Assembly (NCBI GenBank): GCA_964639385.1
Contig: CAZXCW010000005.1
Coordinates: forward strand, 1-38,121
Length of the DNA: 38,121 nucleotides
Origin: an uncultured Nitrospiraceae bacterium
GTDB lineage: Bacteria > Nitrospirota > Thermodesulfovibrionia > Thermodesulfovibrionales > SM23-35
Reading direction: 5' to 3'
Under the pieces are notes generated by a model, which saw only the letters and a program-made list of their open reading frames with translations, ran no database searches and was not told where the DNA came from. The position numbers and the translations under genes were made by a program. Positions 6,203 to 34,241 of this stretch are shown one piece after another; position 1 is the stretch's first letter; each line of letters opens with the position of its first letter.

Positions 6203-6210
6203 CTATTTAT

Positions 6211-6663: not shown

Positions 6664-6666
6664 TTT

Positions 6667-8634
6667 TTATTTCTCTTGTAACAAACCATCTATCTCAGCT
6701 ACTATTTGCTCATCAGTAAAATTTTTTGCCTTTATTGTTGCGCTTGGGCAGACAGCTACACAAATACCACAACCTCTACATAAAATCTCATTAACGGAAA
6801 CAACTTTTTTCTCTTGATCATAGGTTATAGCCTTGTAAGGACACAGGCCTATACACGTCTTGCATCCAGAACAGAGAGCCTCATCAACCTCGGCGGTTAT
6901 CGGCTCAAGGGAGAACTTCTCTCCTGGTATAAGTTGAGAGAGTATTTTGCCTGCTGCTGCTTGACCTTCTGCTACCGCACTCTGGATATCTTTTGGTCCA
7001 TGTGCACACCCTGCAATAAGTATTCCCCCAACGGAAGTCGATACAGGAGAAATATTTATATGTTCCTCAAGAAAAAACCCGTCTTTATCCTGTGATATAC
7101 CGAATATCATTGCAACTTCTCTGGCATCTCTTGTCGACTCAAGAGCAACTGATAAAACAACTAAATCGAAGGCGGAACCCTTAGTCTTCCCATTACTATC
7201 TTCATATTTAACTAAAATCTTACCTTCCTTTTGAGTCAGTTCTATGGAATCAATATTCTTCACCTGAACAAAATCTACTTCTTTTTTATCTGAAAGGGCG
7301 TTAAAGAAACTCTGAGCTGTTCTACCAGGAAGGCAAAGATCAGAGTGAAACTCAGTGATTAAAATATCGGGTAATTGTTCTTTGATAATATGGGCAAACT
7401 TCAATGAATACATACAGCACACCCCGGAACAGTATTCATTATATTTCTTGGTTCTGGAACCTACACAGTGAATGAGGGCTATCCTTTTGGGAGGTTGACC
7501 GCTTTTTAGTAGAATCTTTCCTCCTGTTGGACCAGTTGAGCTCAATAACCTCTCGAATTCAAGGCTGGTAAACACATTTTCGATCTCACCATGTCCATAT
7601 TGGAATACCTTTTCAGGATTAAATACATCAAATCCTGTAGCTAAAATTATTGCACCAACGTTTAATTCCTGGATTTGATCTTCTTCATAATGAATAGAAT
7701 TAAAGGGACAGGTATTCTGGCAGACATTACACTTTTCACCATGGAACTGCAAACAACTTTTCCTATCTATGGTTGCTACATTGGGAAGGGCACCGGCATA
7801 AGGAATATAAATGGCCTTGCGATCATCAAGACCCTCATTGTACTCATTTCTTACTTTAATCGGGCAAACCTCAAAACATGCGCCACAGCCAATACAGGTT
7901 TTGCTGTCAACAAATCGGGCTTTCTTTTTAACCTTAACGATAAAATTACCATAAAATCCAAGTGCCTCTACTACTTCACTGAGCGTTAGAAGTTCTATAT
8001 GCTCATTATGTAAAACCTCATCTAATATCGGATCAAGTACACAAGAGGCACATTCTAAACTTGGGAAAATTTTTTCATATCTGGCTACCTTGCCCCCGAT
8101 GCATGGGAGTTTCTCAACAAGATAAACCTTCCTGCTTTTCTGTGCAAGGGTCAGAGCGGCACTTATTCCAGCTACACCCGCACCTACCACAAGAACATCT
8201 GACTGATATTGTACTTCCTTGATTTCTAAAGGCTCATGAAACGCAACCCTCTTAACAGCTGCAGCAATCATTGCCTTAGCCTTCTTGGTTGCTGAGGCCT
8301 TATCCTTAATTACCCACGCACATTGTTCTCTAATATTGGCAATCTGGGAAAGAAATGGATTTAGACCTGCGTTGCTTAGAACTTTTCGGAAAGTAATTTC
8401 ATGTTCTTTGGGTGAACAAGTGGCAAGTACTACATTCGTTAAGTTATGTTGTTTAATATCATCTTCAATTAATTTTTTGCCTTCTTCCGAACATAAGAGA
8501 TTAAATGACTTGGTCAAAACTACATTCTCAAGACCTTGGGCACATTTAACTACCTCCTCGATATCTATTGCTTCTTTTATATTAGGACCACACTCGCATA
8601 TATAAACACCTATCCTTATTTCTTTATCCTTCAT
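6667..8634 (-). CDS. hdrA: Heterodisulfide reductase subunit A family flavoprotein (HdrA)
   Basis: RIGVYICECG, NIREQCAW, FAD motif VVGAGVAG, ferredoxin CxxCxxCxxxCP motifs, HCVGSR...YCSGVCCMYSLK, GPKDI. Confidence 0.93.
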   Translation of the reverse strand: MKDKEIRIGVYICECGPNIKEAIDIEEVVKCAQGLENVVLTKSFNLLCSEEGKKLIEDDIKQHNLTNVVLATCSPKEHEITFRKVLSNAGLNPFLSQIANIREQCAWVIKDKASATKKAKAMIAAAVKRVAFHEPLEIKEVQYQSDVLVVGAGVAGISAALTLAQKSRKVYLVEKLPCIGGKVARYEKIFPSLECASCVLDPILDEVLHNEHIELLTLSEVVEALGFYGNFIVKVKKKARFVDSKTCIGCGACFEVCPIKVRNEYNEGLDDRKAIYIPYAGALPNVATIDRKSCLQFHGEKCNVCQNTCPFNSIHYEEDQIQELNVGAIILATGFDVFNPEKVFQYGHGEIENVFTSLEFERLLSSTGPTGGKILLKSGQPPKRIALIHCVGSRTKKYNEYCSGVCCMYSLKFAHIIKEQLPDILITEFHSDLCLPGRTAQSFFNALSDKKEVDFVQVKNIDSIELTQKEGKILVKYEDSNGKTKGSAFDLVVLSVALESTRDAREVAMIFGISQDKDGFFLEEHINISPVSTSVGGILIAGCAHGPKDIQSAVAEGQAAAGKILSQLIPGEKFSLEPITAEVDEALCSGCKTCIGLCPYKAITYDQEKKVVSVNEILCRGCGICVAVCPSATIKAKNFTDEQIVAEIDGLLQEK

Positions 8635-8767: not shown

Positions 8768-9112
8768 TCAATGGGTTGGTTTGTGACGAACTGGCTCTTT
8801 CCTGAAGCCATCAATGAAATGAAATAGTGCTAAAAGAGGATGACGATAAGTCATTCGGGGACCGGAATATAGCATCACAGTCTTGATTTTTTCTCTCATT
8901 GTAGGTTTATAGCAATGTATCTTGCAATTTGCACAGGTTGTTTTATTCCCTTGAAATGGGCATCTGTCGAGACGTCTTTTTGAATAAACCAGAAGTTTGC
9001 TGCACTCAGGGCAAAGTTCGCCCTGAGTTTTATGTTGGTTATGACAATAGATGTTTATCATTGTTTCAACAGTTTTTTCTTCCCTTATTACCCTGCGCCT
9101 TTTGCTGAACAT
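8768..9112 (-). CDS. YgbA-like (nitrous oxide-stimulated promoter family) Cys-rich protein
   Basis: REEKTVETMINIYCHNQH...LCPEC...RLDRCPF...TTCANCKIHCY...YSGPRM. Confidence 0.8.
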   Translation of the reverse strand: MFSKRRRVIREEKTVETMINIYCHNQHKTQGELCPECSKLLVYSKRRLDRCPFQGNKTTCANCKIHCYKPTMREKIKTVMLYSGPRMTYRHPLLALFHFIDGFRKEPVRHKPTH

Positions 9113-9166: not shown

Positions 9167-10198
9167 TTAGTAACTGTTAATTGCGTCTATGAGTCTTCGC
9201 AATCTTCCAAAGTCTTTACGATTGAAATCTACTATAAGGCGTGTTAGGTTGGCAATTTCTGGCTCATCCGCTTCTGCAGGTAGCGGCTTAGAAAGGTATA
9301 TGTTTCCCTGGGGAATCAAAATGTCAGAAAATTGGTTTTTGAGGTCGAAAATTGATTGAGTACCAATCTCTGAAGCAAGCCGAATTACTAATTGCTTTTC
9401 AACATATCGCAGGCTGTGGTAGCGATGGTAGAAATGATTGATCTTCTCCACTGCGGCATCTACAGAATCGACGCGCTCAAACAGGTAAAAATCAGGAGCA
9501 GTGATATAACCCTGATCCAAAAGTTCCTCTTCAAAAAACTGAATCCATCTTGACCAGTAGGTTCCCCCAGGCTCGTCCACGAGGACAAGGGGCATAGGAT
9601 CACGTTTACCAGTTTGTAATAGGGTAAGGGTTTCCATTGCCTCGTCAAGAGTACCAAACCCTCCTGGAAAAAGCGCAATTGCATTGGCTTCCTTTAGAAA
9701 AGCCACTTTCCGGTTGAAAAAGTACTTGTATACAATTTGGCGCGGGTTTCCCTCCATGGCAGGATTTAGTTTTTGCTCAAAGGGAAGTCTGATGTTAATA
9801 CCGAAAGAGCATGTTGGCCCGGCACCCTCATTGATCGCCTGCATAATGCCAGAGCCTCCCCCTGTTATTACCATATAACCTGCCTCAGCGAGCTTTTTAC
9901 CGAAGAGCCGTGCCATCTTGTAAACCGGTTCGTCCGGCTGTGTCCTAGCCGAGCCGAAAACACTAACTTTTCGGACCTTGCGATAAGGGCTGAATATTTT
10001 AGAAGTAAACCGCATTTCCTTCAATGTACTATTTATCAGTTTGAGGTCTGCCTTCTCGTTTTCTTCTTGGCCAACCTTTAGGGCAGCCAAAATCATCTCG
10101 CGTATAATTTCCGGGTAATGGATATTATCAATGAGTCCTATCAATTGATCTACCGTCTCGTCTACGGGGCCGTTAGTCCTCGTGAAGTGAACTTCCAT
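9167..10198 (-). CDS. LOG family nucleotide phosphoribohydrolase (long form)
   Basis: VSVFGSAR, ITGGGSGIM, YFFNRKVAF, PGGFGTLDE. Confidence 0.9.
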   Translation of the reverse strand: MEVHFTRTNGPVDETVDQLIGLIDNIHYPEIIREMILAALKVGQEENEKADLKLINSTLKEMRFTSKIFSPYRKVRKVSVFGSARTQPDEPVYKMARLFGKKLAEAGYMVITGGGSGIMQAINEGAGPTCSFGINIRLPFEQKLNPAMEGNPRQIVYKYFFNRKVAFLKEANAIALFPGGFGTLDEAMETLTLLQTGKRDPMPLVLVDEPGGTYWSRWIQFFEEELLDQGYITAPDFYLFERVDSVDAAVEKINHFYHRYHSLRYVEKQLVIRLASEIGTQSIFDLKNQFSDILIPQGNIYLSKPLPAEADEPEIANLTRLIVDFNRKDFGRLRRLIDAINSY

Positions 10199-10440
10199 AT
10201 CGCTCCTTTAAATACTTCTCAAACAACCTTTGCACGGTTATTTTTTAGGATTCTTTTTTTTCTTATAGCCCTCTTGATTTTTTAAAGCTAAAGGTTTTAT
10301 ATACACAGGTACTTCCACCTGCTCATATGTTTTTCTGATTGTCTACATTATTATAATCTAAATAATCTAATAAACTTACAAGGAAACATCCCATTTCATG
10401 GAAAGGAGAAATTAATAGAATCGATTGGGAGAAAAACATT

Positions 10441-10800
10441 AGAACTCTCGAACATGCAAAAACCCACGATGATTTATGGAATTCAGCACAGGTGGAAATG
10501 ATAAAGAGAGGGAAGATGCATGTATACATGAGGATGTACTGGGCAAAAAAGATCTTAGAGTGGACAGAATCTCCTGAACAGGCTTTAGAGATCGCCATTT
10601 ATCTGAACGATAAGTATGAACTTGACAGGAGAGACAGAGACTCAAATGGACATTTTGAGATTGCTTGGAGCATCGGAGGTGTGCATGATAGAGCATGGAA
10701 TGAGCGCCCCGTTTCTGGGAAGATACGATATATGAGCTATAGTGGCTGTAAGGCGAAGTTTGATGTTAAGAAATACATTGAATATATTCAGTCAATGTGA
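10441..10800 (+). pseudogene. phrB: Class II CPD photolyase C-terminal remnant
   Basis: In-frame [36 protein letters not shown]...YLNDKYELD...[13 protein letters not shown]...IRYM. The N-terminal majority is absent and the DGRDPNG motif is disrupted by a 6-bp duplication (10630-10641). Confidence 0.8.
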
Positions 10801-10940
10801 GATCTATAATGAAAAAATAATACCAACCAAGTAAATAAAGGAAAAGAAATAGCTCTTGTATTAGTAAAGATAACCAAATGCATACATGTCACAAGGTTTC
10901 AAAGTGCTTCAGAATGCCATGTAAGATAACCCCCACATCT

Positions 10941-11888
10941 TTATGCATGGTTTCTGAGCATAAGTTCCAGAGGATGAGGATTTAAATAATACTGTCTTTT
11001 CAGATATGCTTCATCGAACTTCCGGACATAATGTTTAATCAGGGCTACTGGAACAATGAGAGGAATGTACCCCCTATGATAATTCTCAATGACTTCAAGC
11101 AATTCTTTTTTGTCATCCGCTGAGAGCTGCTTCTTAAAGTAACCTGTTATATGTAGTAAAACATTTGTATTCTTTTTGACTGTTGCAATCAGATGCAACC
11201 CTTCCATTAATAACTTTATGTATCCAGAGTGAAGGTCTTCAGATTTATATCTTTTTGCATTTGCAGTTAATTGTCCGAGAAGACTGAAATGTTTGGGGCT
11301 GTGAGAAAAGATCAGAAGCTTGTGTTCTGTATGGAAGATTATCAAATCTTTAATGAGACCTCCTTTCTTTATGAACTCCTGCCATCTCTGATACACAAAG
11401 ACCCTCTCTATAAAGTTTTCTCTTAAGCTTGGATCATGGAGCCTGCCATCATCTATGACAGGTATGAGAGAGAAATATTTCATGAATGCTCCCCCGAATA
11501 TGCCGACTCCTCTTTTACTCGGTAATCCAGATGCAGTATAGACTTTTACTCCCCCGATACCCGAACTGGGAGATTTGCTCTTGAAGATGAAGCCGCAAAG
11601 CTCTTCTTTTACAAGCTCTTTTAGTTTTTTCTCTGCCCATTTCAGCATACCTTCGGTGTGATCAATTCCGGTACGAACAGTAACGAGGCGTGGAGAATCT
11701 GGGTTTCCTGCCAAACGCATCGCCTCCCTTGGAACAGGAAGACCATATTCTACTTCTGGACAAACAGACACCCACTCGAAATACTGCCCCAGTGTATCAG
11801 CTATATATCGATCAAGCTTATGCCCGGCATCATAACGAACATTTTCACCGAGAAGGCAGGAACTTATTCCGATTTTGATTTTTTCCAT
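10941..11888 (-). CDS. DUF523 + DUF1722 protein (YbgA / 2-thiouracil desulfurase-like)
   Basis: IGISSCLLGENVRYD, VCPEVEYGLPVPRE, KSKSPS, and C-terminal HITGYFKK...YLNPHP. Confidence 0.88.
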   Translation of the reverse strand: MEKIKIGISSCLLGENVRYDAGHKLDRYIADTLGQYFEWVSVCPEVEYGLPVPREAMRLAGNPDSPRLVTVRTGIDHTEGMLKWAEKKLKELVKEELCGFIFKSKSPSSGIGGVKVYTASGLPSKRGVGIFGGAFMKYFSLIPVIDDGRLHDPSLRENFIERVFVYQRWQEFIKKGGLIKDLIIFHTEHKLLIFSHSPKHFSLLGQLTANAKRYKSEDLHSGYIKLLMEGLHLIATVKKNTNVLLHITGYFKKQLSADDKKELLEVIENYHRGYIPLIVPVALIKHYVRKFDEAYLKRQYYLNPHPLELMLRNHA

Positions 11889-12167
11889 ATGTTTATCCTC
11901 TCCTCGTTATCCTATCACATTCCTTTTATTAACGAGTATTATTTACAAAATCAAGGCGGATATAGTATTTGAGCGGCTTCTTTTGCTGATAGTTATATAG
12001 AATAACAAAGATCAAGGGGCAAAAACCTCGGAGTTCCGACAAAGTCTGAACGAGAATGAGCGAGAATACTGTATCCGCCATTCTTCCTTGCCATCCAGAA
12101 CCAAAATATATAATAATTGCTTATAATTTTGCCTGAGTGAAAGGCTAAAGAATCAGTATATAAAAAT

Positions 12168-12593
12168 ATGGTAATTGAAGAGTCTGTAGTCATTCATGCA
12201 AAGATGGATAAGGTATGGGAGACCCTTACTGACCTCACCTCCTGGAAAGACTGGAATACCGTCATGAGGGATGTCTGTTCAGTAGAAAAATGCCTTTCTC
12301 ATGGAGGCAAGATTTTGTGTTCTTTCCGTCCATTCTTATTGCCTATTAAAGCTATAATAAGGGTAGAGGAGGTAAAAACTCATAAGCGCATTGTATGGTC
12401 TGCTAAGAAAAAGAGGCTCTCTGCGCGAAACAAATTCTCTTTTCAGAGCAACGAAAAAGGTGTAATAGTTACAAGCAGGGAAACTTTCAGTGGCCCCCTC
12501 GTCAAGTCTCTCAGTTTTCTATTCCCTAAAAGGAAAATGCGGACTCTTATAAAAACTTTTCTGAAAGACCTTAAGACAGCGTCAGAAAGTTAA
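12168..12593 (+). CDS. SRPBCC/START family protein
   Basis: IEESVVIHAKMDKVWETLTDLTSWKDWN; 141 aa with a C-terminal helix LKDLKTASE. Confidence 0.75.
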   Translation: MVIEESVVIHAKMDKVWETLTDLTSWKDWNTVMRDVCSVEKCLSHGGKILCSFRPFLLPIKAIIRVEEVKTHKRIVWSAKKKRLSARNKFSFQSNEKGVIVTSRETFSGPLVKSLSFLFPKRKMRTLIKTFLKDLKTASES

Positions 12594-14837: not shown

Positions 14838-15680
14838 TTACATGAAGTCAGACACAAAGCCGAATCGCCTGTAGATCTCTTGCGCCTGGTAGGTCTTCAT
14901 AAAACTAAGAAATTTTTCAGCACTACCGGGATGAGGGGCATTTTTGAGCCTCGCTATATAGTAATTCACCTTATCCCGCTGATCTAAGCCTTCGCCAGGC
15001 TCTATAGCCTCAACCCTTAGACCCATACTCTGGGCATTCTTGACCTCTGTTGCCCACACAGGTCCGACATCCACTGTGCCTTTTCTTATCCTCAATGGAG
15101 TCTCTCTATGGTGAACAATTGTAAGGATCGTGGTTCCTTCAGCCCTTTTATCATCCATAATCCTCCTTACCAGTGCATCACCCCCGGCACTTTTATACAT
15201 ATCAATAATATATCGAGTAATATCCTCCATCTCCCCTGGCTGGGAAATCCTCACATCATCACGACCAAGGTCTTTAAGCGTTTTTATGCCTGCTGGATTC
15301 CCTTTAGGAACCATTAAAACTATTCTATTGTGAAGATAAACAAAGTAGTCATTAATATAACCTCTATACAACAGTTCCTTCATTGCATCTTCTGTTACAG
15401 CAGTATAGACATCGGGTGTTATTCTTATTTCTTTTTCACCAAATTTAGCACCACCTGCGAGAATCTGTTTTAGTTCTAAGCCAGGAGGAAGCGTCTCATA
15501 AAAAATCTTTTTGATTTCGGGGTATATCCGCTGAAATAAATTGAGAAGTTCATCCATAACCATAAACTGGTTACCAGCCATGAAGAGTATAAGGTCAGCG
15601 CTATCCATGTATTCAAGACCGTGAAGGTCATCTCCACGGCTGAGCGGTATTTCTGGCAAAGGGGTATATCCGTTAGTCAC
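14838..15680 (-). CDS. ModA-like oxyanion/solute-binding fold protein without an evident signal peptide
   Basis: LFMAGNQF, FYETLPPG, NRIVLMVPKGNPAGIKTLKDL, HHRETP, AQEIYRRFGF resemble molybdate-binding proteins; GTG start. Confidence 0.65.
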   Translation of the reverse strand: MTNGYTPLPEIPLSRGDDLHGLEYMDSADLILFMAGNQFMVMDELLNLFQRIYPEIKKIFYETLPPGLELKQILAGGAKFGEKEIRITPDVYTAVTEDAMKELLYRGYINDYFVYLHNRIVLMVPKGNPAGIKTLKDLGRDDVRISQPGEMEDITRYIIDMYKSAGGDALVRRIMDDKRAEGTTILTIVHHRETPLRIRKGTVDVGPVWATEVKNAQSMGLRVEAIEPGEGLDQRDKVNYYIARLKNAPHPGSAEKFLSFMKTYQAQEIYRRFGFVSDFM

Positions 15681-15833: not shown

Positions 15834-17324
15834 TCATTTCTTTTCCTCAACCACAATCCACGTACCTTTTCCCGGTTCAGACTCTATACGCAGGTGCCAA
15901 CCTATCGCTGTAGCCCGTTCTTCCATCGTCATTAGCCCCCACCCTCTCTGTTCCCTCATTCGAATACTTGAGTAATCAAACCCCTTACCATTGTCGGCAA
16001 TGGTGAGTTGCATCATCCCTGCTTTTCCCTCCAGCGTTACGGTCACTTGGTTGGCTTGGGCGTGCTTGACTACGTTGGTCAGAGCCTCTTGGCCAATGCG
16101 AAATAAGGCTGTTTCTGTGGCCAGCGGCAATCGAGGCATCATTTCTTCTCCTTGTACCTTTACATCCATACCTGTGCGATTCAGAAACCGCCTCCCACAC
16201 CAGCGCAATGCTGCCAGTAATCCTAAGTCATCCAGGACAGATGGGCGTAGCTCAGCCATCGCATCCCGGAGGTAATTGTTAGTTTGCTCTAACAAGCATA
16301 GTGAATCATCAATGTGTAAACCAAGGTCTTTTATCTCCTTGGGCAACTCTGACTGCACAGCTTTCAGGCTTATAGCGATAGCTGCTAAATTCTGTGATAC
16401 CTCGTCATGTATTATCTGCGTTACCCGTTTCCTTTCGGCTTCTTCTCGCTCTGCGAGACGTGCGGAAAGGGAGCGCAACTGTTCTCGCGAATTTATTAGT
16501 TTTTTCTCCGCCTCCTTGAGCTCGATAACCATATAATTAAAGGCAAGCGCAAGTCTTCCTATCTCATCTCTTGTTCCGACTGGTACCTTTTCAACAGGAC
16601 CTCCTATACCAAGTGCTTTCACACTCTCAGTCAATTTATTGAGCGGTCTTATAATTCCTTTCACTATAGGAAATGCAAGCATAGAGCCAATAATCAAAAA
16701 GATAATTCCAATCATAATGCCTTTAAATAAAATAACCTTGAGTTGTTTATTCAGTATATCTTTGTCGAGTGTTAACCCAACAAACCCCATGATAAGCTCT
16801 TTCGTGCGGAATGAATTTTTATCAAAAAACGGAGTCGCCTCAACAAAATATTTTGAGCCTGAGGTCACGGGTGTCCAAAACTCAACCGTACCGGCAGTGC
16901 TCTCAAGGTAGCAAGCAGAGCCAGACTCTTTAATTTTCTCAAGTATATGTTTCAGTTTATCCTGATCTACTTCCATACTTTTTCCCTGTGCCTTACCGTC
17001 CCCTCTTTCTTGTCTTATCAATAATTTCCCATCCACCGTAAAAATCGATAAAGACTTAACTTCATCTTGTTGCAAAAATCCCTTGGTAGAGTTTACAAGC
17101 AGGTCTTTATTCTCCGTAAAAACACCGAGCTTCGAGTTATCAGCAAGAAGTCTCGCAATCAGTTCCCCTTTCTTTATGAGGTTATTTGTTAGTGTTCTTC
17201 TCTCTTGTAGAATAAAAAAGACAGTAAATGAAGAAGAAATAATTAATATGAAAAGTATAAATTTGATGAATACTTTAACACCAAAGTTTTCATTATAAAT
17301 CTTCAGAAGATTTAAAGATTTCAT
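15834..17324 (-). CDS. Membrane sensor histidine kinase (2 TM, HAMP, HisKA_3, HATPase)
   Basis: Two TM helices, HAMP DEIGRLALAFN, EAERKRVTQIIHDEVSQ, ELRPSVLDDLGL, QEALTNVVKHA, DNGKGF. Confidence 0.9.
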   Translation of the reverse strand: MKSLNLLKIYNENFGVKVFIKFILFILIISSSFTVFFILQERRTLTNNLIKKGELIARLLADNSKLGVFTENKDLLVNSTKGFLQQDEVKSLSIFTVDGKLLIRQERGDGKAQGKSMEVDQDKLKHILEKIKESGSACYLESTAGTVEFWTPVTSGSKYFVEATPFFDKNSFRTKELIMGFVGLTLDKDILNKQLKVILFKGIMIGIIFLIIGSMLAFPIVKGIIRPLNKLTESVKALGIGGPVEKVPVGTRDEIGRLALAFNYMVIELKEAEKKLINSREQLRSLSARLAEREEAERKRVTQIIHDEVSQNLAAIAISLKAVQSELPKEIKDLGLHIDDSLCLLEQTNNYLRDAMAELRPSVLDDLGLLAALRWCGRRFLNRTGMDVKVQGEEMMPRLPLATETALFRIGQEALTNVVKHAQANQVTVTLEGKAGMMQLTIADNGKGFDYSSIRMREQRGWGLMTMEERATAIGWHLRIESEPGKGTWIVVEEKK

Positions 17325-17332
17325 TATCCTTC

Positions 17333-18235
17333 TCAGTTTATTATTTTGGCCTTACTCATAATCTTATTGTTAAGAGTTACTCCCATTTTCTTTGCCGTTT
17401 TGAGATTTATTGTTAAGACGGCCTTACGTGCATCAAATCTGGGGAGATTCTTTATATTCGTCCCTGACAGAATCTTTTTGGCCATCTCTCCTGCCTGTCT
17501 CCCTATATCAAAGGCATCTATGCTCACTGACATCACAGCTCCCAACTCCAGATACTTATCTGAAAAGGTAAAGACAGGGATTTTATTTTCTATGGAGAAG
17601 AGAAACAAAAATTCTACTGTCTCTGGGGTAATCACTGTTGTATCGGGTAACATCCAGAAGACATCTATTCCATACTTCATATTATTTATTATCGAAGGTA
17701 CCTCTTTTGGGCTGTGAACTTCCCTGGCTATCAGTTTGATTCCCAATTTCTTTGAGTAATATCGAGCTCTTTCGATAAGATAGCCTGTCTTTGCCGGATC
17801 ATATAAAAGGCCTACTCTCTTAGCATCGTGGAAACCCTCATGCAACAAAACTAACTGCTTTTCGGGAGGTATATTCATGCTGACGCCAGTTATATTTTCT
17901 TCTTTCGAGATTACAGATTGAGGATTCAGGACCATAAGATAAATAATGGGTATATCTTTAATCTTTTTGACTTTTAAAAGGGCATCTATTCCCACTGTTA
18001 CAATTATATCAGGTTTGATTTTAGAAACCTCTTTTACGACATCTACCCCTCCCATTTCCGAGACTATTAACCTTTCAATTTCACAATCACAAACACTTTT
18101 AAAACCACTAAGTGCCTCTTCATACGGCTTAACCATGAGACTCTCAATAACAATAACCTTTGAATTGGCCTCAACTATACAAGGGCTGAGTATTAATAGT
18201 TTGACCAGCAGTATTACAAAAAGCTTCCTTATCAT
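17333..18235 (-). CDS. Periplasmic ABC-type substrate-binding protein (ABC_sub_bind-like), stand-alone
   Basis: Signal peptide from MIRKLFVILL, ITGVSMNIPP, RVGLLYDP, FWMLPDTTV, TINLKTAKKMGV; 8 bp from the kinase; no permease or ATPase nearby. Confidence 0.82.
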   Translation of the reverse strand: MIRKLFVILLVKLLILSPCIVEANSKVIVIESLMVKPYEEALSGFKSVCDCEIERLIVSEMGGVDVVKEVSKIKPDIIVTVGIDALLKVKKIKDIPIIYLMVLNPQSVISKEENITGVSMNIPPEKQLVLLHEGFHDAKRVGLLYDPAKTGYLIERARYYSKKLGIKLIAREVHSPKEVPSIINNMKYGIDVFWMLPDTTVITPETVEFLFLFSIENKIPVFTFSDKYLELGAVMSVSIDAFDIGRQAGEMAKKILSGTNIKNLPRFDARKAVLTINLKTAKKMGVTLNNKIMSKAKIIN

Positions 18236-18335
18236 AGCTTGATAAAAGTTAAGCAATATTTGCCTTGAATATAAATCATAAACAAATATTTTCTGCTTGA
18301 AGAAGATTTTAAAATTTTATAATATTGACCTACTT

Positions 18336-20213
18336 ATGTGTAACTCTTTTCTTAAAAGAGGAATCTATTATATATATTTATCGTTGATTATCTTCTGTTT
18401 TTGCCATTTAGCCTATGCCCAGACAGAGGAAGAAATGAAGATTCTCCAGATGTTTTATAAGGAAAAGGAACTTGTTGTAACGCCCACAAGACACCCAAAA
18501 CCCATCTCTCTGGTTGCAGAGAATATCACTGTCATAACCTCTAAAGAGATAGAGGATATAAATGCCCATACACTGACAGATGTCCTGAATACTATTCCCG
18601 GTGTTCAGATGGATATACGAGGGGGCCCTGGCAGTGTAACAAGTGCTCGTATTCAAGGTTCTGAATTCAGGCATGTCCTTGTAGTAATAGATGGCGTTAG
18701 CCTGAATAACCTTTCAGATAATTTTGCTGACATCAGTGCGATCCCTGTCCAGAATATTGAGAGGATAGAGATAATTAAGGGTCCTGCCTCATCCTCATGG
18801 GGTTCATCACTCGGAGGAATAATAAATATCATTACAAAATCTCCTGTTGATTCAACCAAGATAGAAGGGACACTCTCGACATCTTATGGAGAACGGAATA
18901 CAGGGGACTACAGAGCGGAAGTTACTGGCAAAGTAGGCAACTTCGGCTATTATGTTTATGGCGGAAATCTCCTTTCTGATGGCCTCAGGCCTAACACTCA
19001 TTTTTATGAGAATAATGTTTATGCAAAGTTACAATGGGATATTACTGATAAGGCAAACCTACTCTTCACCTTTGGATATAACAAGGGAAACAGGGGGATG
19101 GGTGAGTATCTCGACTTTTCATTCAAGAATAATTTTGAGTATCTCTTTTCTACACTCTCCCTGAACTACTCAATTACTGACGAGGCTGATTTCAACCTTT
19201 CATTAAGGACATCGAGACAGAATGCAGAACATTTTCTGAATCAGCTAAGCACAGGTGCAGAATTGACAATGAATACCTTCTATGATAAGGGAAATGGTGG
19301 AAGCGCAAAACTTACCTGGGGTTATGGAGTGCACAGTTTTGTCTTAGGTGCTGATTTTGATCACGGAGAACTCAAATCAAATAGTATCACAGGTGGTAGG
19401 CAAGATCTGGAGAAATGGGCGGTATTTATAAATGACACAATAGAAGTTGATAAGTTTTCCCTCACCCCTGGTATCAGATATGACCATACAAACACAAATG
19501 GTGAGTTCCTGAGCCCGAGCCTTGGAGTCACTTATAAACTAACTGAAAAGACTATCTTAAGGGCATATATTGCGAGGGGTTTCAGTATCCCTCCTCTTTC
19601 TTCAACGTTCGGTACCGGATTCTTCTATGTGCCTAACCCCGACCTTGAGGTTGAGAAGGTCTGGTCCTATCAGGCAGGAATAGAGTCTATGGACCTAAAA
19701 TACTTATGGGTTAAAACTACCCTGTTCAGAAATGATATATGGGATGCCATTTTTAATGAACAGCTGCCTGATGGTTCATTTAAAGCAGTCAACAAGGGAA
19801 AGCAGAGGAGGCAGGGGTTTGAGATTGAATTAAAGACTGCTCCTGTTTATAACACATCTCTCTTCGCAGGCTTTGCCTATGTAGACGCAAGGGACAGGGA
19901 TACGGGGGAGAAAATATCGGATATTCCAGGATACACCTATGACATTGGCATACAATATAACACCAATAAATCCTTCAGGGCGTCCGTCAGGGGCCATTAC
20001 ATATGGTGGAATGCCCAATCATCCTTTAACGGGAAATATAATTCTTTTATCTGGGACCTCAGCCTCATGAAAAAGATTTACAGGAGCAATAAAAGGGCTG
20101 TTGAACTCTTCCTTACAGCCCATAATATCTTCAATGGCTCACAGTACCTTCAGGATCCCTTTAAGAATCCGAGGAGATGGATTGAGGGAGGGCTTAGGAT
20201 AAAATTTCTGTAG
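18336..20213 (+). CDS. TonB-dependent outer membrane receptor
   Basis: Plug motifs VLVVIDGV and IERIEIIKGPASSSWG..GGIINIITK; beta-barrel C-terminus NIFN...RWIEGGLRIKFL. Start is ATG 18336 or TTG 18297. Confidence 0.92.
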   Translation: MCNSFLKRGIYYIYLSLIIFCFCHLAYAQTEEEMKILQMFYKEKELVVTPTRHPKPISLVAENITVITSKEIEDINAHTLTDVLNTIPGVQMDIRGGPGSVTSARIQGSEFRHVLVVIDGVSLNNLSDNFADISAIPVQNIERIEIIKGPASSSWGSSLGGIINIITKSPVDSTKIEGTLSTSYGERNTGDYRAEVTGKVGNFGYYVYGGNLLSDGLRPNTHFYENNVYAKLQWDITDKANLLFTFGYNKGNRGMGEYLDFSFKNNFEYLFSTLSLNYSITDEADFNLSLRTSRQNAEHFLNQLSTGAELTMNTFYDKGNGGSAKLTWGYGVHSFVLGADFDHGELKSNSITGGRQDLEKWAVFINDTIEVDKFSLTPGIRYDHTNTNGEFLSPSLGVTYKLTEKTILRAYIARGFSIPPLSSTFGTGFFYVPNPDLEVEKVWSYQAGIESMDLKYLWVKTTLFRNDIWDAIFNEQLPDGSFKAVNKGKQRRQGFEIELKTAPVYNTSLFAGFAYVDARDRDTGEKISDIPGYTYDIGIQYNTNKSFRASVRGHYIWWNAQSSFNGKYNSFIWDLSLMKKIYRSNKRAVELFLTAHNIFNGSQYLQDPFKNPRRWIEGGLRIKFL

Positions 20214-20292
20214 ACAGATAAGGCATTTTATGGTATAAATCATTAAATTCCTCCCTGGGAGGTAATTATAATTTTTTCTAAGGAGGCCTGAG

Positions 20293-20394
20293 ATGGAGAA
20301 AAAGGGAATAATAATCCTGGACAAAGGCTTAAAAGATTCAGTCGGACCCACTGGTGTTTGCTGCTATGGATCTTTTTTGCCACTCAGAAATTAA
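20293..20394 (+). CDS. RiPP precursor peptide, 33 aa (geopeptide-like): MEKKGIIILDKGLKDSVGPTGVCCYGSFLPLRN
   Basis: Not in the ORF track. AGGAGG RBS at 20281-20286, ATG 20293, TAA 20392-20394; IIILDKG leader plus a CC-containing core, directly upstream of the rSAM/SPASM gene. Confidence 0.85.
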   Translation: MEKKGIIILDKGLKDSVGPTGVCCYGSFLPLRN

Positions 20395-20410
20395 TGGTAC
20401 ATCGTCTTTA

Positions 20411-20443
20411 AAAATAAGGGGAGAGTTTTCTCCCCTTTATTTT
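20411..20443 (+). terminator. Stem-loop between precursor and maturase (partial terminator or stabiliser)
   Basis: AAAATAAGGGGAGA-GTTT-TCTCCCCTTTATTTT. Confidence 0.65.
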
Positions 20444-20451
20444 GTTAATAC

Positions 20452-21756
20452 ATGCATCTTTCCAAATATCTCAAGATATACCCTCATAAAGAAAAACCTG
20501 ATTATCATCTCTTCTATTCCACGAAAAAGGCATCCATCATTCTCTTACATGAATCCACGTTGGAATCCATGGGCGAAGGGTCTCTTTCTCCATCTGATGA
20601 AGACACTCTTGCAGAACTCGGCTTTTTAGTGCCTGATTTAGATAAAGAGAGGGATGAGATGCTCAGCCTCATTGATGAGGCCAATAAGAGAAGAAAAAGA
20701 TTTAATGCCGTCGTTGTCATGAACCTCGACTGTAATCTGCGCTGTAGATACTGTTATGAAGAAGGAATGAAGGGAAGGTTCTACATGTCTTCAGAGACAG
20801 CAGACCTCCTGATTGATTTTATAGAAAGGCATTATCTTGCCGATGGAAAGACTGTTCATCTTGATTTCTATGGAGGAGAACCACTTCTCAGCATTGAGCT
20901 CATAAAGTATATCTCTAAAAGACTGAGGTCTGCTGTAGAGGAAAGAGGTCTTACATATACTTTTAACCTCGTGACAAATGGAACTTTTCTGAAAAGAAAG
21001 ATCGCAGAGGAGCTGGCATTACTTGGTCTAAAGAGTGCAAAAATAACCATAGATGGCCCAAGGGAAAACCATGATATTTTCAGGCCCTTCAAGACGGGCT
21101 CAGGCACCTTTGATGTAATCATCAGGAATATCAAAGATAATAGTGGGGTTATCAAGATTCAGATTGGTGGCAATTACACCCGTGAAAATTACAGGGATTT
21201 CCCTCGCCTCTTTGATTATCTGCTTGAAGAGGATCTTACTCCTGATAAAATCTCTACTGTAAAGTTTGACCCCATCACAAAGGCAGGTGGTGATTTTGCC
21301 CTCTCTGACTTCAGGAAGGGATGTGAATCAATCAACGAACCCTGGCTCTTTGAGGCAAGCCTGTTCCTGAGGGAAGAGATTTTGAAGAGAGGCTTCAACA
21401 CTCCAAAGATACGCCCATCCCCCTGTATGATAGAAATACAGGACGATATCGTTGTTAACTTTGATGGAACCATTTATAAATGCCCTGGCTTGATAGGCTG
21501 GAAGGGCTTTGAGGTTGGAGATTTAAGGACAGGTATAAAGGACTACAGAGAATCACACAACCTTGACGTATGGAAAAGACAGGAATGCCTTGACTGCGAA
21601 TACCTGCCCCTCTGCTTCGGTGGATGCAGATATATGAAGCTACTGAGAGATGGAAGGATTGATGATGTGGACTGCAGAAAACCTTATCTCGATGCCACAC
21701 TGGAGGCATTTATTAAACAGGACATAAAATATAGACTGAAGGCCGATTCACATTGA
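20452..21756 (+). CDS. Radical SAM/SPASM peptide maturase (geopeptide-maturase-like)
   Basis: CNLRCRYC, FYGGEPLL, TNG; SPASM C...DGTIYKC...CLDCEYLPLCFGGC...C; ~80-aa N-terminal extension likely an RRE. Confidence 0.9.
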   Translation: MHLSKYLKIYPHKEKPDYHLFYSTKKASIILLHESTLESMGEGSLSPSDEDTLAELGFLVPDLDKERDEMLSLIDEANKRRKRFNAVVVMNLDCNLRCRYCYEEGMKGRFYMSSETADLLIDFIERHYLADGKTVHLDFYGGEPLLSIELIKYISKRLRSAVEERGLTYTFNLVTNGTFLKRKIAEELALLGLKSAKITIDGPRENHDIFRPFKTGSGTFDVIIRNIKDNSGVIKIQIGGNYTRENYRDFPRLFDYLLEEDLTPDKISTVKFDPITKAGGDFALSDFRKGCESINEPWLFEASLFLREEILKRGFNTPKIRPSPCMIEIQDDIVVNFDGTIYKCPGLIGWKGFEVGDLRTGIKDYRESHNLDVWKRQECLDCEYLPLCFGGCRYMKLLRDGRIDDVDCRKPYLDATLEAFIKQDIKYRLKADSH

Positions 21757-22316
21757 GCCCATCGAGCGCCAGAAATCTCTTCATCTTTACCGCTGTCAGT
21801 TCTATATGGGCGATTGTATTGGGATTTATAGGTCCCTTTTATGTACTTCAGGTTGAGAAGCTAAGTGGCGGAATGGAGAAACTCGGGATAGCCTTCAGTA
21901 TCATGGTACTTCTCCAATCCCTTACCACATATTTTGCAGGTCGTTTTTCTGATAAATTAGGGAGGAAGCCCTTTCTCTTTCTGACAGCATACACAGATGC
22001 AACAACTCTCTTTCTTTACACGGTTATCAAAGAAACCTATCAATTATATCTCCTCCAGGCAATGCTTGGTATCACAAATGGTATAGCAGGGACAATCGGG
22101 ACGTCCTTCCTCGGAGACCTGACCATAAAGGAAAAGAGGGGAAGGGCTGTAGGTAAGTTCAATGCGATTGTCAGCCTTTGTGCGGCAACAGGTCTTGCTC
22201 TCGGTGGTTATCTGGTTAAACTATATGGCTTGAAATCCTTATTTTATGTCGCCTCAGTAGTTGTGGCATTTTCGACTGTACTATTATTCTTCATAAAAGA
22301 AGATAATCACAAATAG
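21753..22316 (+). CDS. Half-size (about 6 TM) MFS-type membrane protein
   Basis: MFS motif A GRFSDKLGRK, EKRGRAVG; 187 aa; start overlaps the rSAM stop. Confidence 0.75.
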   Translation: MSPSSARNLFIFTAVSSIWAIVLGFIGPFYVLQVEKLSGGMEKLGIAFSIMVLLQSLTTYFAGRFSDKLGRKPFLFLTAYTDATTLFLYTVIKETYQLYLLQAMLGITNGIAGTIGTSFLGDLTIKEKRGRAVGKFNAIVSLCAATGLALGGYLVKLYGLKSLFYVASVVVAFSTVLLFFIKEDNHK

Positions 22317-22750: not shown

Positions 22751-23077
22751 TTATTCACTATAAACAATAATACCAGTTTCGAGTATCTCTCTTACAAATC
22801 CTTTTTTATCTCTAAGCTGCTTAGGGGTAAGTCCTATTGGTTCGATAGGCTCTCCGAATTTATGATGGGCTTTACTCAATATTAATTGACGCTCAAAGAT
22901 ATCTAATTTTTGAAATGTTGGGGAGACAACTGCAATGTCTATGTCGCTATATTCTCTCTGCCTCCCTTTTGCATAAGAGCCATATAGGATGACTTGCGAA
23001 ACCTTCACTCCAAGCTTTTTAAGCTCATTGATATATCTTATTATGATATTTTCAATCTCTTGTCTTTTTTTAACCAT
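22751..23077 (-). CDS. Minimal nucleotidyltransferase (MNT; antitoxin-type)
   Basis: VILYGSYAKG...SDIDIAVVS motif; overlaps the HEPN gene. Confidence 0.88.
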   Translation of the reverse strand: MVKKRQEIENIIIRYINELKKLGVKVSQVILYGSYAKGRQREYSDIDIAVVSPTFQKLDIFERQLILSKAHHKFGEPIEPIGLTPKQLRDKKGFVREILETGIIVYSE

Positions 23078-23436
23078 TTTATTAATGCCCTTGTTCTTCT
23101 CAGATAATTCTCAACTTTATCTCTCTTAAAAGCTTTAATCATAGCATCAATATCTTCAGGATATCTTGTAACAATACTCAGGTCATTGAGAGATTCCAGT
23201 GTTTCAAGATAGTTTTCCGGCAGTTTAAGTTCAATTGTTTTTGATAGGTAAATCAGGTTATGTGTTTTAGGTGGAATTTTTCCTAACACAGCTTCGTATA
23301 ATCCTTTAAGTAACTTTTCCACTGACAGGTGGCACATAAAGAGGACATAGATATACCTGCTTGTTTTGAACATATGTTCCGCGGTCTTTAAATCATAATT
23401 TGAAGACTTAATCCAGTTTGTTATGTGTTTATGCAT
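23041..23436 (-). CDS. HEPN domain protein (partner of MNT)
   Basis: WIKSSNYDLKTA, CHLSVEKLLKG, PKTHNL, TRYP. Confidence 0.88.
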   Translation of the reverse strand: MHKHITNWIKSSNYDLKTAEHMFKTSRYIYVLFMCHLSVEKLLKGLYEAVLGKIPPKTHNLIYLSKTIELKLPENYLETLESLNDLSIVTRYPEDIDAMIKAFKRDKVENYLRRTRALIKWLKKDKRLKIS

Positions 23437-28684: not shown

Positions 28685-29311
28685 ATGAAGATACAGCTCA
28701 GTCAAAAACAAGCAGATGCACTTCGTTATGTACGAAACTGGCTTATGCATAAGGGCAAAACCCCATCTGTGCGTGAGCTGATGACAGCACTTGGATACAA
28801 ATCCCCTAGATCGGCTGCTTTAATTATTGAGGAATTAATCCAGAAAGGTATTTTGAGAAAGCGTTCAAATGGAGAGTTGCAGTTAATTAAAGATATTGAC
28901 GCAGATTCAGTTCATGCCCGCACAGTCGATATTCCTTTAGTTGGCATGGTAACCTGTGGAGTACCTATTTTAGCTCAGGAAAATATTGAGGGATATATTC
29001 CTGTATCTGTTTCCCTTGCAAAGCCCGGGTTTAAATACTTCTTGCTTAGGGCTAAAGGCGATTCCATGAACAAAGCCGGCATCAATGATGGAGATTTAAT
29101 ACTTGTTCGCCAGCAGTCAACCGCGCAAAATGGCGATATAGTTGTAGCACTGATTGACGATGAGGCGACTATAAAAGAGTTTCAACGTAGTAAAAATTGT
29201 GTTGTACTAATGCCAAGATCAAGTAATAAAAAATATAAGCCGATTATCCTGACTGAAAATTTTCAGGTTCAAGGAGTGGCTGTAACTACAATTCCAAAGT
29301 TGGAGGTTTGA
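28685..29311 (+). CDS. lexA: LexA-family repressor (winged HTH + S24 autopeptidase)
   Basis: TPSVRELMTALGYKSP HTH, IPLVGMVTCGVP cleavage region (Cys-Gly), catalytic GDSM and ATIK. Confidence 0.9.
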   Translation: MKIQLSQKQADALRYVRNWLMHKGKTPSVRELMTALGYKSPRSAALIIEELIQKGILRKRSNGELQLIKDIDADSVHARTVDIPLVGMVTCGVPILAQENIEGYIPVSVSLAKPGFKYFLLRAKGDSMNKAGINDGDLILVRQQSTAQNGDIVVALIDDEATIKEFQRSKNCVVLMPRSSNKKYKPIILTENFQVQGVAVTTIPKLEV

Positions 29312-29313
29312 AC

Positions 29314-29598
29314 ATGGCTAAAAAGACAGTGGATTTTAACAAGAAAGGAATAGGGAAGCTGCCAAACAACAAACCGGTCGTTTATAAGATACTTACAGAA
29401 GGCGGACAAAATAATTATACAGGTATAGCTCAAAAAGGTCGAGTTAAAGAAAGAATATCAGAACATTTATCAGGTGGCAAAGATTATGTTCCAGGCTCGA
29501 AAGTTCAAATTGAGCAAATAAAAAGCATCGAAGAGGCAAGGAAAAAAGAAACAGGTATTATTTCAAGAAGTGACCCAAAGTATAATAAACAGGAGTAA
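29314..29598 (+). CDS. Small GIY-YIG-like nuclease-domain protein
   Basis: PVVYKIL...NNYTGIAQKGRVKERISEH...EARKKE...PKYN; GGAGG RBS in the lexA 3' end. Confidence 0.7.
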   Translation: MAKKTVDFNKKGIGKLPNNKPVVYKILTEGGQNNYTGIAQKGRVKERISEHLSGGKDYVPGSKVQIEQIKSIEEARKKETGIISRSDPKYNKQE

Positions 29599-29772
29599 TA
29601 GTCTTGACCGCAAAGCAGACAAGGAGCCGTTTAAAAGGGGTAAGGAAGGAGAAGTAAAAGAGCCAATAATGTTTGAATTTGGTGGGGATAGAAGAAGGAA
29701 TTAAGAGAGCAAGATGAATAAGGTATGTGTTTCTAAATATCTAAGTCTAAATACCAAACTACTTTAAATATA

Positions 29773-31155
29773 ATGAGAAAAACACTTTTCATAAGCCACG
29801 CCACACCAGAAGATAATGATTTAGTGATTTGGTTGACCGCACGTTTGCAACTCTTAGGCTATGATGTTTGGATCGATAAAAATGCCTTACTTGGTGGTGA
29901 AAAATTCTGGGAGGAAATAGATCAAGTAATAAGAAATAAGGCTATTAAGTTTCTACTGGTTTATTCCAGAAACATTTGTATTAACAAAACCCCTGGCCGG
30001 TTAAAGGATGGCATTTATAAAGAATTTAGTCTGGCCGAAAGTGTGAGTAAGCAGGAGTCGTTAAAAGACTTCATTACAGAGTTGAATATAGATAATGCGC
30101 CACATAATCTCTTCATCGGCGCCGATAGACTTACGCAGATTCCTTTTTATGAAAACTGGGCAGAAGGGCTGAAAGCATTACTCAAAAAGTTAGAAAAGGA
30201 TGAAGTTTTTAAATCGGGAGAGAGAACTGTTGCAGGATTTTCTCAGTGGTATGAAAATGAGTACACAACCAAAAAGGGAATCATTCCAAAAAGAGAACTT
30301 TATTACTCAAATTGGTGGCCTATTCCAAAATTGCCGAATCATTTTTATCTATACCGCTTTGAAACAGAAAAGCAAGCTCAGGATGTTTATGAACGCAATC
30401 AAGAATTTCCTATTATCAAGTCAGGCAATATTCTAACCACATTTGATCCTGATCTATCATTGATTCTAAATTATGACGGACAAGAATTTACGATTAAGCC
30501 CAAAGATGTTCATAAAATCAAAATAAGAGATGTTCCTTTGGGTTATGAAAGCTCTGACTTCCCCTCGCATAAGGAGGCTGAAAACTATCTGAAAAGAATT
30601 TTGCATCGAGTCTTCCATCTAATAATGAAAAACAGCGGACTTTTCTGGTATGAGTTAGCGAACAAGAGACAGGCATATTTTTATCCACAAAAGAAGAAAA
30701 TATCTTTCGAATATCCTTTAAGAGAGGAAAGACGAAGGAAGAAACTAAAAGATTTAGTAGGTAGGTATTTGACTCTTGGTAAGTGGCATTTTGCTATATC
30801 ATCTAGGGCGATTACAACACATATTCTTGGATACAGTCTCAAATCACATATTATATTTACTTCCGATGGTTTTAGAGTTTGGGAAGACAAAGATCATCTC
30901 CATACTCACAGGAGAAAAAAAGGCAAGCGTCTTTATAACGATGAGTGGCGTGATATGCTTTTTGCCTTTCTGCATGGATTAAAGAAAAATGGAAAAATTC
31001 AAATACCTTTAAATAAAGAGTTTGTCTTAGAAATGCCCTTGCAAACCGAATTGCTCTGGTCAGATTTTGGATATTTTGATCCAAATGATAAATCTCGCCA
31101 AGAGGTTCTTAATCCATATGAAGAACTGTATGAAGAAGGCTATGAACAAGAATGA
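29773..31155 (+). CDS. TIR-APAZ effector of a SPARTA system
   Basis: TIR LFISHATPEDND...GYDVWID...FWEEI...GIYKEF (candidate catalytic Glu); APAZ YYSNWWPI, WHFAIS, SHIIFTSDG, HRRKKGKRLYNDEWRD; ATGA overlap with the pAgo gene. Confidence 0.92.
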   Translation: MRKTLFISHATPEDNDLVIWLTARLQLLGYDVWIDKNALLGGEKFWEEIDQVIRNKAIKFLLVYSRNICINKTPGRLKDGIYKEFSLAESVSKQESLKDFITELNIDNAPHNLFIGADRLTQIPFYENWAEGLKALLKKLEKDEVFKSGERTVAGFSQWYENEYTTKKGIIPKRELYYSNWWPIPKLPNHFYLYRFETEKQAQDVYERNQEFPIIKSGNILTTFDPDLSLILNYDGQEFTIKPKDVHKIKIRDVPLGYESSDFPSHKEAENYLKRILHRVFHLIMKNSGLFWYELANKRQAYFYPQKKKISFEYPLREERRRKKLKDLVGRYLTLGKWHFAISSRAITTHILGYSLKSHIIFTSDGFRVWEDKDHLHTHRRKKGKRLYNDEWRDMLFAFLHGLKKNGKIQIPLNKEFVLEMPLQTELLWSDFGYFDPNDKSRQEVLNPYEELYEEGYEQE

Positions 31156-34223: not shown

Positions 34224-34241
34224 CAACAGGGGAATACAACA

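Follow-up and report, generated by a model that had tools for sequence, protein, structure and literature searches.

What would a bacterium do with a small modified peptide whose genes stand beside those of an outer-membrane receptor, a periplasmic binding protein and a membrane sensor kinase? The question is raised by positions 15834–22316 of a 38,121-nt stretch of contig CAZXCW010000005.1 (assembly GCA_964639385.1, 95% complete in 287 contigs) from an uncultured Nitrospiraceae bacterium; the whole stretch is referred to below as the window. Six genes lie at these positions, encoding a histidine kinase, an orphan PF04392 binding protein, a TonB-dependent receptor, a 33-aa peptide with a CC pair, a radical SAM/SPASM enzyme and a half-size major facilitator superfamily protein (half-MFS). 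A first-pass annotation had described these six open reading frames (ORFs) and suggested that the peptide is modified, exported, re-imported through the receptor, captured by the binding protein and sensed by the kinase; our ORF list and Pfam searches place all six genes where it had them and with the features it gave. As for the loop itself, we regard the chances as roughly even that the six genes form one functional geopeptide cassette that makes, releases, recaptures and senses its product.

A geopeptide maturase and its recurring companions

The radical SAM/SPASM enzyme (434 aa, 20452–21756, + strand) matched the NCBIfam model TIGR04280 ("geopeptide radical SAM maturase") over model positions 1–428 of 428 with 650 bits against a cut-off of 400 (649.7 bits in a six-frame search of the host genome), and by this match it is a clear member of the family. 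TIGR04280 is a hypothetical equivalog, bioinformatically defined only. The next-best NCBIfam families are thioether or Cys-rich peptide maturases, and all of them scored far under their own cut-offs (TIGR04463 with 161.6 bits against 525, CefB with 149.8 against 600, PapB with 142 against 340). Among the matches listed, the nearest named maturase is 62% identical and comes from an uncultured Nitrospirales metagenome-assembled genome. The CX3CX2C motif (C94/C98/C101) was invariant in 22/22 relatives, as were seven C-terminal cysteines (C325, C344, C379, C382, C388, C392 and C408), and G339 sits four residues ahead of C344. The order of these cysteines agrees with what we take to be the SPASM pattern (CX9-15GX4C...CX2CX5CX3C...C); C325 and C344 are 18 residues apart, beyond the 9–15 residues that we assume for this spacing, and the Pfam SPASM model matched just 3/22 relatives, at E 0.14 or worse.

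An AlphaFold2 model of the maturase, built from the alignment of the 22 relatives, reached a predicted local distance difference test (pLDDT) score of 90.1. Its N-terminus forms strands at residues 7–11, 18–23 and 28–33 and helices at 34–42, 47–55, 63–71 and 73–80, all with pLDDT >90. Three strands with three helices is presumably the topology of a PqqD-like recognition element (RRE) for ribosomally synthesised and post-translationally modified peptides (RiPPs), and the resemblance suggests that this is an RRE-like, putatively leader-binding domain; profile searches with PqqD/RRE profiles gave no match in the maturase. The best fold matches of the model were 5why/5wgg, aligned over the full length with TM scores of 0.68–0.70 and E 1.9e-21, under an entry title that names a thioether-forming sactipeptide enzyme. 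The same entry gave the best sequence match in the PDB (79.9 bits), and we take it to be CteB.

Companions of the maturase were counted in two sets of loci. The first was a phylum sample of 401 genomes, 44 of which have TIGR04280 above cut-off; up to 20 kb was fetched around 49 matches, and 50 loci were counted. The second came from named species-representative genomes, from which 80 loci were taken, 4 were dropped as duplicate DNA and 76 were counted; in species-representative genomes, at least 600 stretches matched and at least 580 were confirmed as maturase. Linkage was scored by tblastn with the window proteins, and loci were considered to have full flanks if at least 4.5 kb was available on both sides. 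Among the 50 phylum-sample loci, the receptor was present at 44, the binding protein at 42, the kinase at 39 and all three at 34 (31, 27, 27 and 26 of the 32 with full flanks), and the corresponding counts for the 76 named-genome loci were 63, 46, 34 and 30 (37, 30, 23 and 23 of the 38 with full flanks). Pooling the full-flank loci (n = 70) gave the receptor at 68, the binding protein at 57 and the kinase at 50 or more. For the kinase, tblastn under-counts, as a HAMP kinase follows the binding protein in 3/3 of the "missing" loci that were scanned (L135, L160 and L169). The synteny that the first-pass annotation had put forward as a check is thus borne out, with receptor, binding protein and kinase travelling with peptide and maturase across genomes, and because the arrangement recurs at ~120 loci, we do not attribute it to chance.

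In the phylum sample, the usual arrangement is co-linear (receptor, peptide, radical SAM enzyme, binding protein, kinase, regulator); the same strand carries the receptor upstream at 43/50 loci and the binding protein downstream at 35/50. The window has the divergent arrangement, in which the binding protein lies upstream on the opposite strand (7/50 and 37/76 loci); in this form, the binding protein and kinase, and sometimes the receptor, oppose the peptide and radical SAM genes. All-against-all clustering of 751 neighbourhood proteins gave 481 clusters, of which the recurrent ones were four cassette families and the half-MFS; beyond these five, no cluster was found in more than 6/50 loci. 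A gene for a transporter-less SBP_bac_11 protein (280 aa, 14838–15680, − strand), 150 bp downstream of the kinase, was considered as a further cassette member and rejected, as it had no homologue in 49 related loci. By record title, cassettes occur in Nitrospirota, Geobacteraceae, Desulfobacterales, Desulfobulbales and others, at protein identities of 40–60%, and cultured strains of Geomonas, Geotalea and Geomesophilobacter carry one.

The first-pass annotation had raised the prospect that receptor, binding-protein and kinase homologues would turn up mostly without the peptide and the radical SAM enzyme. For close homologues of the binding protein, the opposite was found: of the 56 closest (at least 180 bits), 39 have a maturase above cut-off no more than 5 kb away, 5 adjoin a sub-cut-off or fragmentary maturase, 4 are in fragmented genomes with the maturase on another contig and 8 are in genomes without a maturase match at E 1e-60. 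For distant PF04392 paralogues the prospect holds, with binding-protein homologues (E 1e-25 or better) in 162/401 genomes vs the radical SAM enzyme in 55/401. Another 20 places with a binding protein were also fetched, the majority not next to a full-scoring maturase. Receptor, binding protein and kinase stand together with neither peptide nor radical SAM enzyme at L088, L092 and L095, in genomes without a maturase match at E 1e-60, and the L088 receptor is 61% identical to that of the window. L098 is a more distant fourth set of this kind, and its genome (G354) does hold a full cassette (L039). Stand-alone pairs of binding protein and kinase were found at L087, L090, L091 and L099, and at L104 two TGA codons interrupt the maturase, with peptide, receptor, binding protein and kinase intact. 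We read the eight close homologues in genomes without a maturase match as receiver-only modules; together with the decayed producer, these would be consistent with a molecule available beyond the cell that makes it.

Genomes with two cassettes encode two different peptides, and each cassette has its own receptor (L043/L063, L040/L052, L044/L049 and L047/L073) and its own binding protein, except L047, which has neither binding protein nor kinase. The maturase was found in 0/13 genomes of the host's own family. In marsh metagenomes (three runs), contigs at least 85% alike span all 30 bins of the cassette stretch. Their match to the window stops at 15845 on the kinase side and at 22314 on the MFS side, where these genes end, and the sequence beyond is absent elsewhere in the window. 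The absence from family relatives and the divergence at the cassette ends give a weak hint, from only 45 and 86 nt of compared flank, that the cassette was acquired as a unit.

Components of the cassette

The precursor gene (20293–20394, + strand) is preceded by its own Shine-Dalgarno sequence (AAGGAGG) and encodes the 33-aa peptide MEKKGIIILDKGLKDSVGPTGVCCYGSFLPLRN, with leader KKGIIILDKGLK and core ..GVCCYGSFLPLRN. Resemblance to the geopeptide families had been proposed for maturase and peptide alike; when searched with profile models, it stood for the maturase and failed for the peptide, as the "geopeptide" model TIGR04229 (22 positions, cut-off 30 bits) matched nothing in the entire host genome at E up to 10. 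In five Geobacteraceae genomes, the best TIGR04229 match adjoins the maturase in 5/5 and passes the cut-off in 1/5. TIGR04229 is a narrow model, since four of these five maturase-adjacent peptides score under its cut-off.

Precursors at other loci were taken as small ORFs that end 40–260 nt before the maturase and have CC near the C-terminus, a filter that makes the CC invariant by construction, and 101 of the 126 non-duplicate loci passed it. With only one Cys demanded, as in the phylum sample, a small CC ORF nevertheless lies upstream of the maturase at 43/50 loci. The window peptide fits the filter, with a hydrophobic-strand leader followed by G and with CC 7–14 residues from the C-terminus. 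Across the 101 peptides, the tail after CC is 7–14 residues long (median 9), G is found at +2 in 54 and P at +6 in 36. A leader motif is present in 85 of the 101 and comes in two forms, either as (K/R)I(I/V)VL(K/D)KG alone or combined with long Lys/Ala-rich repeats; in looser terms, the conserved leader reads (K/R)-I-I/V-V-L-x-K/D-G. These repeats are of the AKKKATKKK type and up to ~70 residues long, with the short motif either N-terminal or adjacent to the core (L041, L044, L045, L048, L054, L060, L072, L074, L075, L080, L085, L118, L126, L136 and L141). At L039 and L052, a tandem pair of precursors with near-identical leaders and slightly different cores precedes one maturase. L079 has a maturase above cut-off with a Cys-free 28-aa ORF upstream (MKENVFLTKYIHDLYHPLKVNSGNTYIL) and a half-MFS, with no receptor, binding protein or kinase; the maturase there adjoins a 622-aa gene matched by none of the window's cassette proteins. 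In contigs related to the window (three marsh runs and one sediment run), a C>T change at 20322, which we read as synonymous, is the sole one in the peptide gene among the differences listed. No listed sequencing run that contains this DNA is recorded as RNA.

Between the peptide and radical SAM genes, at 20416–20446 (+ strand), lies a terminator-like hairpin, AAGGGGAGA-GTTT-TCTCCCCTT followed by the T run TATTTTGTT, with a folding energy of −16.6 kcal/mol (z −3.16). A comparable hairpin occurs at this place in 36/42 loci, and its purine-rich stems (GGGAGAG/CTCTCCC type; 20416–20437 in the window) are conserved in sequence as well as structure. It is probably an attenuator that would let the peptide transcript exceed the enzyme transcript. 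The left arm of the hairpin resembles a Shine-Dalgarno sequence, with the right arm as its complement, and because no other Shine-Dalgarno sequence precedes the start of the radical SAM gene in the window, the hairpin may also gate translation of the enzyme. An Rfam search of 18100–20600 returned nothing approaching gathering scores. Sites for sigma-54, scanned with the consensus that we assume for it (TGGCAC-N5-TTGCW), were perfect upstream of the receptor or peptide in only 2/48 loci (L040 and L084) and were absent from the window.

The TonB-dependent receptor (625 aa, 18336–20213, + strand; ORF from 18297) likely starts at the in-frame ATG at 18336, giving a signal peptide that ends in AYA ahead of QT. 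Pfam recognised a Plug (84.2 bits, residues 73–174 of the long ORF) and a barrel (146.3 bits, 214–590), the latter of the 22-strand type, and there is no N-terminal signalling extension. Near the N-terminus, ELVVTP resembles what we take to be the TonB-box consensus. The best equivalog match was of the BtuB type, at 149 bits against a cut-off of ~600, and by these scores the receptor is a member of no named subfamily. Between the receptor and the binding-protein gene on the other strand lies an AT-rich divergent intergenic region (18236–18335), and the gap of about 100 bp given in the first-pass annotation is exactly 100 bp from start codon to start codon. It contains a perfect 8-nt inverted repeat, AATATTTG-N20-CAAATATT (18255–18290), which may have arisen by chance in AT-rich DNA.

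The binding protein (300 aa, 17333–18235, − strand; ORF to 18256) likely starts at the ATG at 18235, and its N-terminus then resembles a signal peptide. Its match to PF04392 (ABC_sub_bind) was strong (129.6 bits, cut-off 25.9, E 1.8e-37), its score as a TrpX equivalog was 101 bits against a cut-off of 390, and on these scores it is a PF04392 member and not a TrpX equivalog. From the solved PF04392 proteins it is remote (76 bits at best). The 26 Pfam-scanned ORFs of the window (6211–6663, 8768–9112, 34242–34736 and 36953–37945 lay outside the scan) include no ABC permease, ABC ATPase or response regulator, in keeping with the earlier description of a binding protein without its own permease or ATPase. 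A CxC or single-Cys motif is present in the binding protein of 25/27 phylum-sample cassettes and missing from distant paralogues. These cysteines were considered as a general ligand or metal site and rejected as such, as C51 is kept in 39/69 and C49 in 43/69 of a wider set and the motif is absent in Geomonas. Co-folding of the binding protein (residues 24–300) with the kinase sensor (38–200) from paired 27-row alignments scored 0.02, which speaks neither for nor against binding.

The kinase gene (496 aa, 15834–17324, − strand) starts 8 nt from the stop of the binding-protein gene. Two transmembrane segments flank a periplasmic sCache_4 domain, followed by HAMP, HisKA_3 and HATPase_c, and H306 was invariant in 27/27. 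When ten proteins from cassettes were scanned (eight kinases and two neighbouring regulators), sCache_4 and HAMP were kept and the transmitter varied, being HisKA_3 with a NarL-type regulator, HisKA with a sigma-54 regulator, or a hybrid kinase with REC. That the sensor part stays while the transmitter is swapped points to the periplasmic sensor and the binding protein as a conserved unit. The receiver-only module L088 has an unusual output domain, as its hybrid kinase (9973–12381, + strand; HAMP, HisKA, HATPase and receiver) is fused to a C-terminal RadC-like JAB domain.

The half-MFS (187 aa, six transmembrane segments, 21753–22316, + strand) overlaps the maturase ORF by 4 nt and aligns to positions 11–176 of the 347-position MFS_1 profile. 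Orthologues of 185–194 aa directly follow the maturase at 6/50 phylum-sample loci, where they are 56–71% identical, and at 6/76 named-genome loci; the 11 loci other than the window are L037, L052, L068, L071, L079, L106, L114, L122, L124, L127 and L148. The ESM Atlas holds several clusters of MFS proteins of ~180–200 aa from bacteria and archaea of several phyla. We considered a truncated pseudogene and rejected it, given the similar-size orthologues at these 11 loci, contigs of related strains that diverge only at its stop and the common MFS clusters of ~190 aa. The half-MFS is a candidate inner-membrane exporter and would have to pair with itself to make a 12-helix transporter.

What the cassette might sense

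In the proposed loop, the enzyme would cross-link the peptide core in the cytoplasm, as would be expected from its closest solved and named relatives, which make thioethers from Cys. The product would then leave the cell, in the window via the co-translated half-MFS, return to the periplasm through the dedicated TonB receptor and be captured there by the binding protein, which when loaded would switch the kinase. Such a loop would inform the cell about extracellular peptide and thereby, for instance, about cell density, diffusion or neighbours. We infer this chain of modification, export, re-import, capture and sensing from gene order. A binding protein without a transporter, in conserved pairing with a periplasmic sensor kinase, suggests signalling rather than uptake.

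Several results weigh against the loop. The window peptide matched no NCBIfam model even at E 10. No response regulator adjoins the window kinase among the 26 scanned ORFs, unlike in its relatives, and the host's three NarL-type regulators each adjoin their own other HisKA_3 kinase. No exporter gene directly follows the maturase in 114/126 loci, and the binding protein is missing from 13/70 full-flank loci, so sensing is not obligatory for the geopeptide system. Across 28 disjoint cassette pairs, most of them saturated, divergence of the binding protein and of the core gave a partial r of 0.00 once radical SAM divergence was removed. In the same mostly saturated pairs, receptor divergence tracked the core (r 0.51, p 0.006) and the leader about equally (r 0.47); with the leader correlation about as strong, the link between receptor and core is not ligand-specific. 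In addition, the solved PF04392 proteins described in PMC10443332 bind L-Trp, L-Tyr or L-Phe and not peptides.

A more specific reading, which we consider possible but not likely, is that the loop amounts to TonB-gated peptide signalling of diderm anaerobes, in which a cross-linked, diffusible signal of ~10–13 residues would be admitted by the receptor and read in the periplasm, with a private channel for each cassette. The dedicated receptor would then be needed because a peptide cannot cross the outer membrane unaided, and the private channels are suggested by cores that vary, by cassettes of one genome that own their receptor sets and by receiver-only genomes, which would be eavesdroppers. 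Somewhat doubtful to us is the account in which the module of receptor, binding protein and kinase responds to some unrelated compound from outside and induces peptide and maturase, making the peptide the response and not the ligand and leaving its product some other role, such as that of an antimicrobial, a factor inside the cell or a PQQ-like cofactor precursor. The stand-alone receiver sets (L088, L092, L095 and L098) and pairs (L087, L090, L091 and L099) indicate that the module can work without the peptide, and the same account would suit a binding protein that does not covary with the core in those 28 mostly saturated pairs, an exporter that is absent at most loci and the amino acids known as PF04392 ligands (PMC10443332). 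A common ligand is, however, hard to square with the strict one-to-one pairing of receptor sets, even where a genome has two cassettes; 39/56 close binding-protein homologues lie no more than 5 kb from a full-scoring maturase, and the usual order puts peptide and radical SAM enzyme between receptor and binding protein on one strand.

The same gene logic would serve a methanobactin-like metallophore, where the modified CC peptide complexes a thiophilic metal extracellularly, the receptor imports the complex and binding protein and kinase report this loaded form; the quantity sensed would be metal rather than density, and synthesis and uptake would follow metal supply. We consider this unlikely. 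Its architecture does parallel the methanobactin operons described in PMC3621798, CC is kept at 43/50 phylum-sample loci although a single Cys was demanded, the Cys motif of the binding protein distinguishes 25/27 phylum-sample cassettes from distant paralogues and the receiver-only genomes resemble siderophore piracy. Yet the nearest enzymes spend Cys thiols on thioethers, which removes metal ligands, and the Cys motif is not general (39/69 and 43/69, absent in Geomonas). The neighbourhood shows no recurrent inner-membrane importer, reductase or metal-dependent regulator (beyond the five families, clusters are in 6/50 loci at most), and the radical SAM protein is the sole enzyme of the cassette, with none of the MbnB/MbnC type. 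That the genes are mere neighbours without shared function, ordered by descent or chance, seems very improbable: many loci come from related lineages and the counts are not independent, but the set is kept in two arrangements, co-linear and divergent, and across several groups at 40–60% protein identity, and the flanks around it are not conserved (481 clusters from 751 proteins, with only five cassette families recurring). Peptide signalling, if true, would be a new communication mode for diderm bacteria; a metallophore, if true, would give anaerobes a new class of peptide for scavenging metals. The system is widespread, and record titles such as Geobacteraceae, Desulfobacterales, Desulfobulbales and Thermodesulfovibrionales/Nitrospirota place it in groups responsible for the turnover of metals, sulfur and carbon in anoxic aquifers and sediments.

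Other genes of the window are described here for context. At 3613–8634 (− strand) are the large (469 aa) and small (323 aa) subunits of a NiFe hydrogenase, a 150-aa ORF and an HdrA-like FAD/Fe-S protein (655 aa), a set which we take to resemble an Mvh/Hdr-type electron-bifurcating module and which fits an anaerobe; with these genes, the first-pass description of the host as a diderm anaerobe is reasonable. Just past the right end of the cassette, across 430 bp without an ORF of at least 100 aa, a nucleotidyltransferase (108 aa, Polbeta/NTP_transf_2) overlaps a HEPN protein (131 aa) at 22751–23436 (− strand), and the pair looks like an MNT-HEPN toxin-antitoxin system. Further on, 28685–34736 (+ strand) looks like a defence island, with a LexA-like repressor (208 aa) followed by a low-GC stretch (0.33–0.36) that encodes a TIR-domain protein (460 aa), a 504-aa protein without a Pfam match, an N6/N4 DNA methylase (482 aa) and a 164-aa ORF.

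Comparison with known systems

The closest named system is the geopeptide system of NCBIfam (TIGR04229 with TIGR04280), which the window resembles in its full-length maturase match and in the small Cys peptide directly upstream. It differs in that its peptide escapes TIGR04229, and the model names are silent on receptor, binding protein and kinase. We found no paper that uses "geopeptide" or "TIGR04280", though mentions in supplementary tables of RiPP surveys remain possible, and none on a system of radical SAM peptide, TonB receptor, binding protein and kinase, the only architectural parallel being genome mining for methanobactins. Judged by title, none of the papers on ranthipeptides and TonB deals with the geopeptide system, and one concerns a Bacteroides cluster. 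Among enzymes, the thioether-forming radical SAM/SPASM maturases (5wgg/5why, PapB, CefB and TIGR04463) are built of the same three parts (an N-terminal domain that binds the peptide, a radical SAM core and a SPASM domain), although the window enzyme scores far below the cut-offs of all their families.

RiPPs that come with their own importer and their own periplasmic sensor have hardly been explored, and methanobactin is the one well-studied parallel that we found. As outlined in PMC3621798, methanobactin operons encode a Cys-containing precursor, the exporter MbnM, the TonB-dependent transporter MbnT, in some cases a binding protein, and regulation by MbnI/MbnR. On that outline (PMC3621798), cassette and operons alike encode a short Cys precursor together with an exporter and a dedicated TonB-dependent transporter, and both add a binding protein in the periplasm and a regulator by which uptake is reported. 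The enzymes are different, MbnB/MbnC in methanobactin and a radical SAM/SPASM protein here. So is the partner of the binding protein, which is an ABC importer in methanobactin and a histidine kinase in the cassette, and, unlike in methanobactin, the cassette receptor lacks an N-terminal signalling extension and there is no pair of extracytoplasmic function (ECF) sigma and anti-sigma factors.

For the sensing half, sensor kinases that depend on a binding protein include LuxP-LuxQ (for AI-2), TorT-TorS and ChvE-VirA, and siderophore sensing by a receptor with a two-component system is represented by PfeA with PfeS/PfeR. We know of no case that joins a TonB receptor, a binding protein and a kinase with a RiPP from the same operon. 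Compared with these sensor systems, the cassette uses other parts, with a PF04392 binding protein and an sCache_4 kinase sensor. Like the LuxP-LuxQ type, it encodes a transporter-less binding protein beside a membrane kinase, and as with PfeA and PfeS/PfeR, where the TonB receptor admits a molecule that the two-component system senses in the periplasm, the genes of the cassette suggest the same layout.

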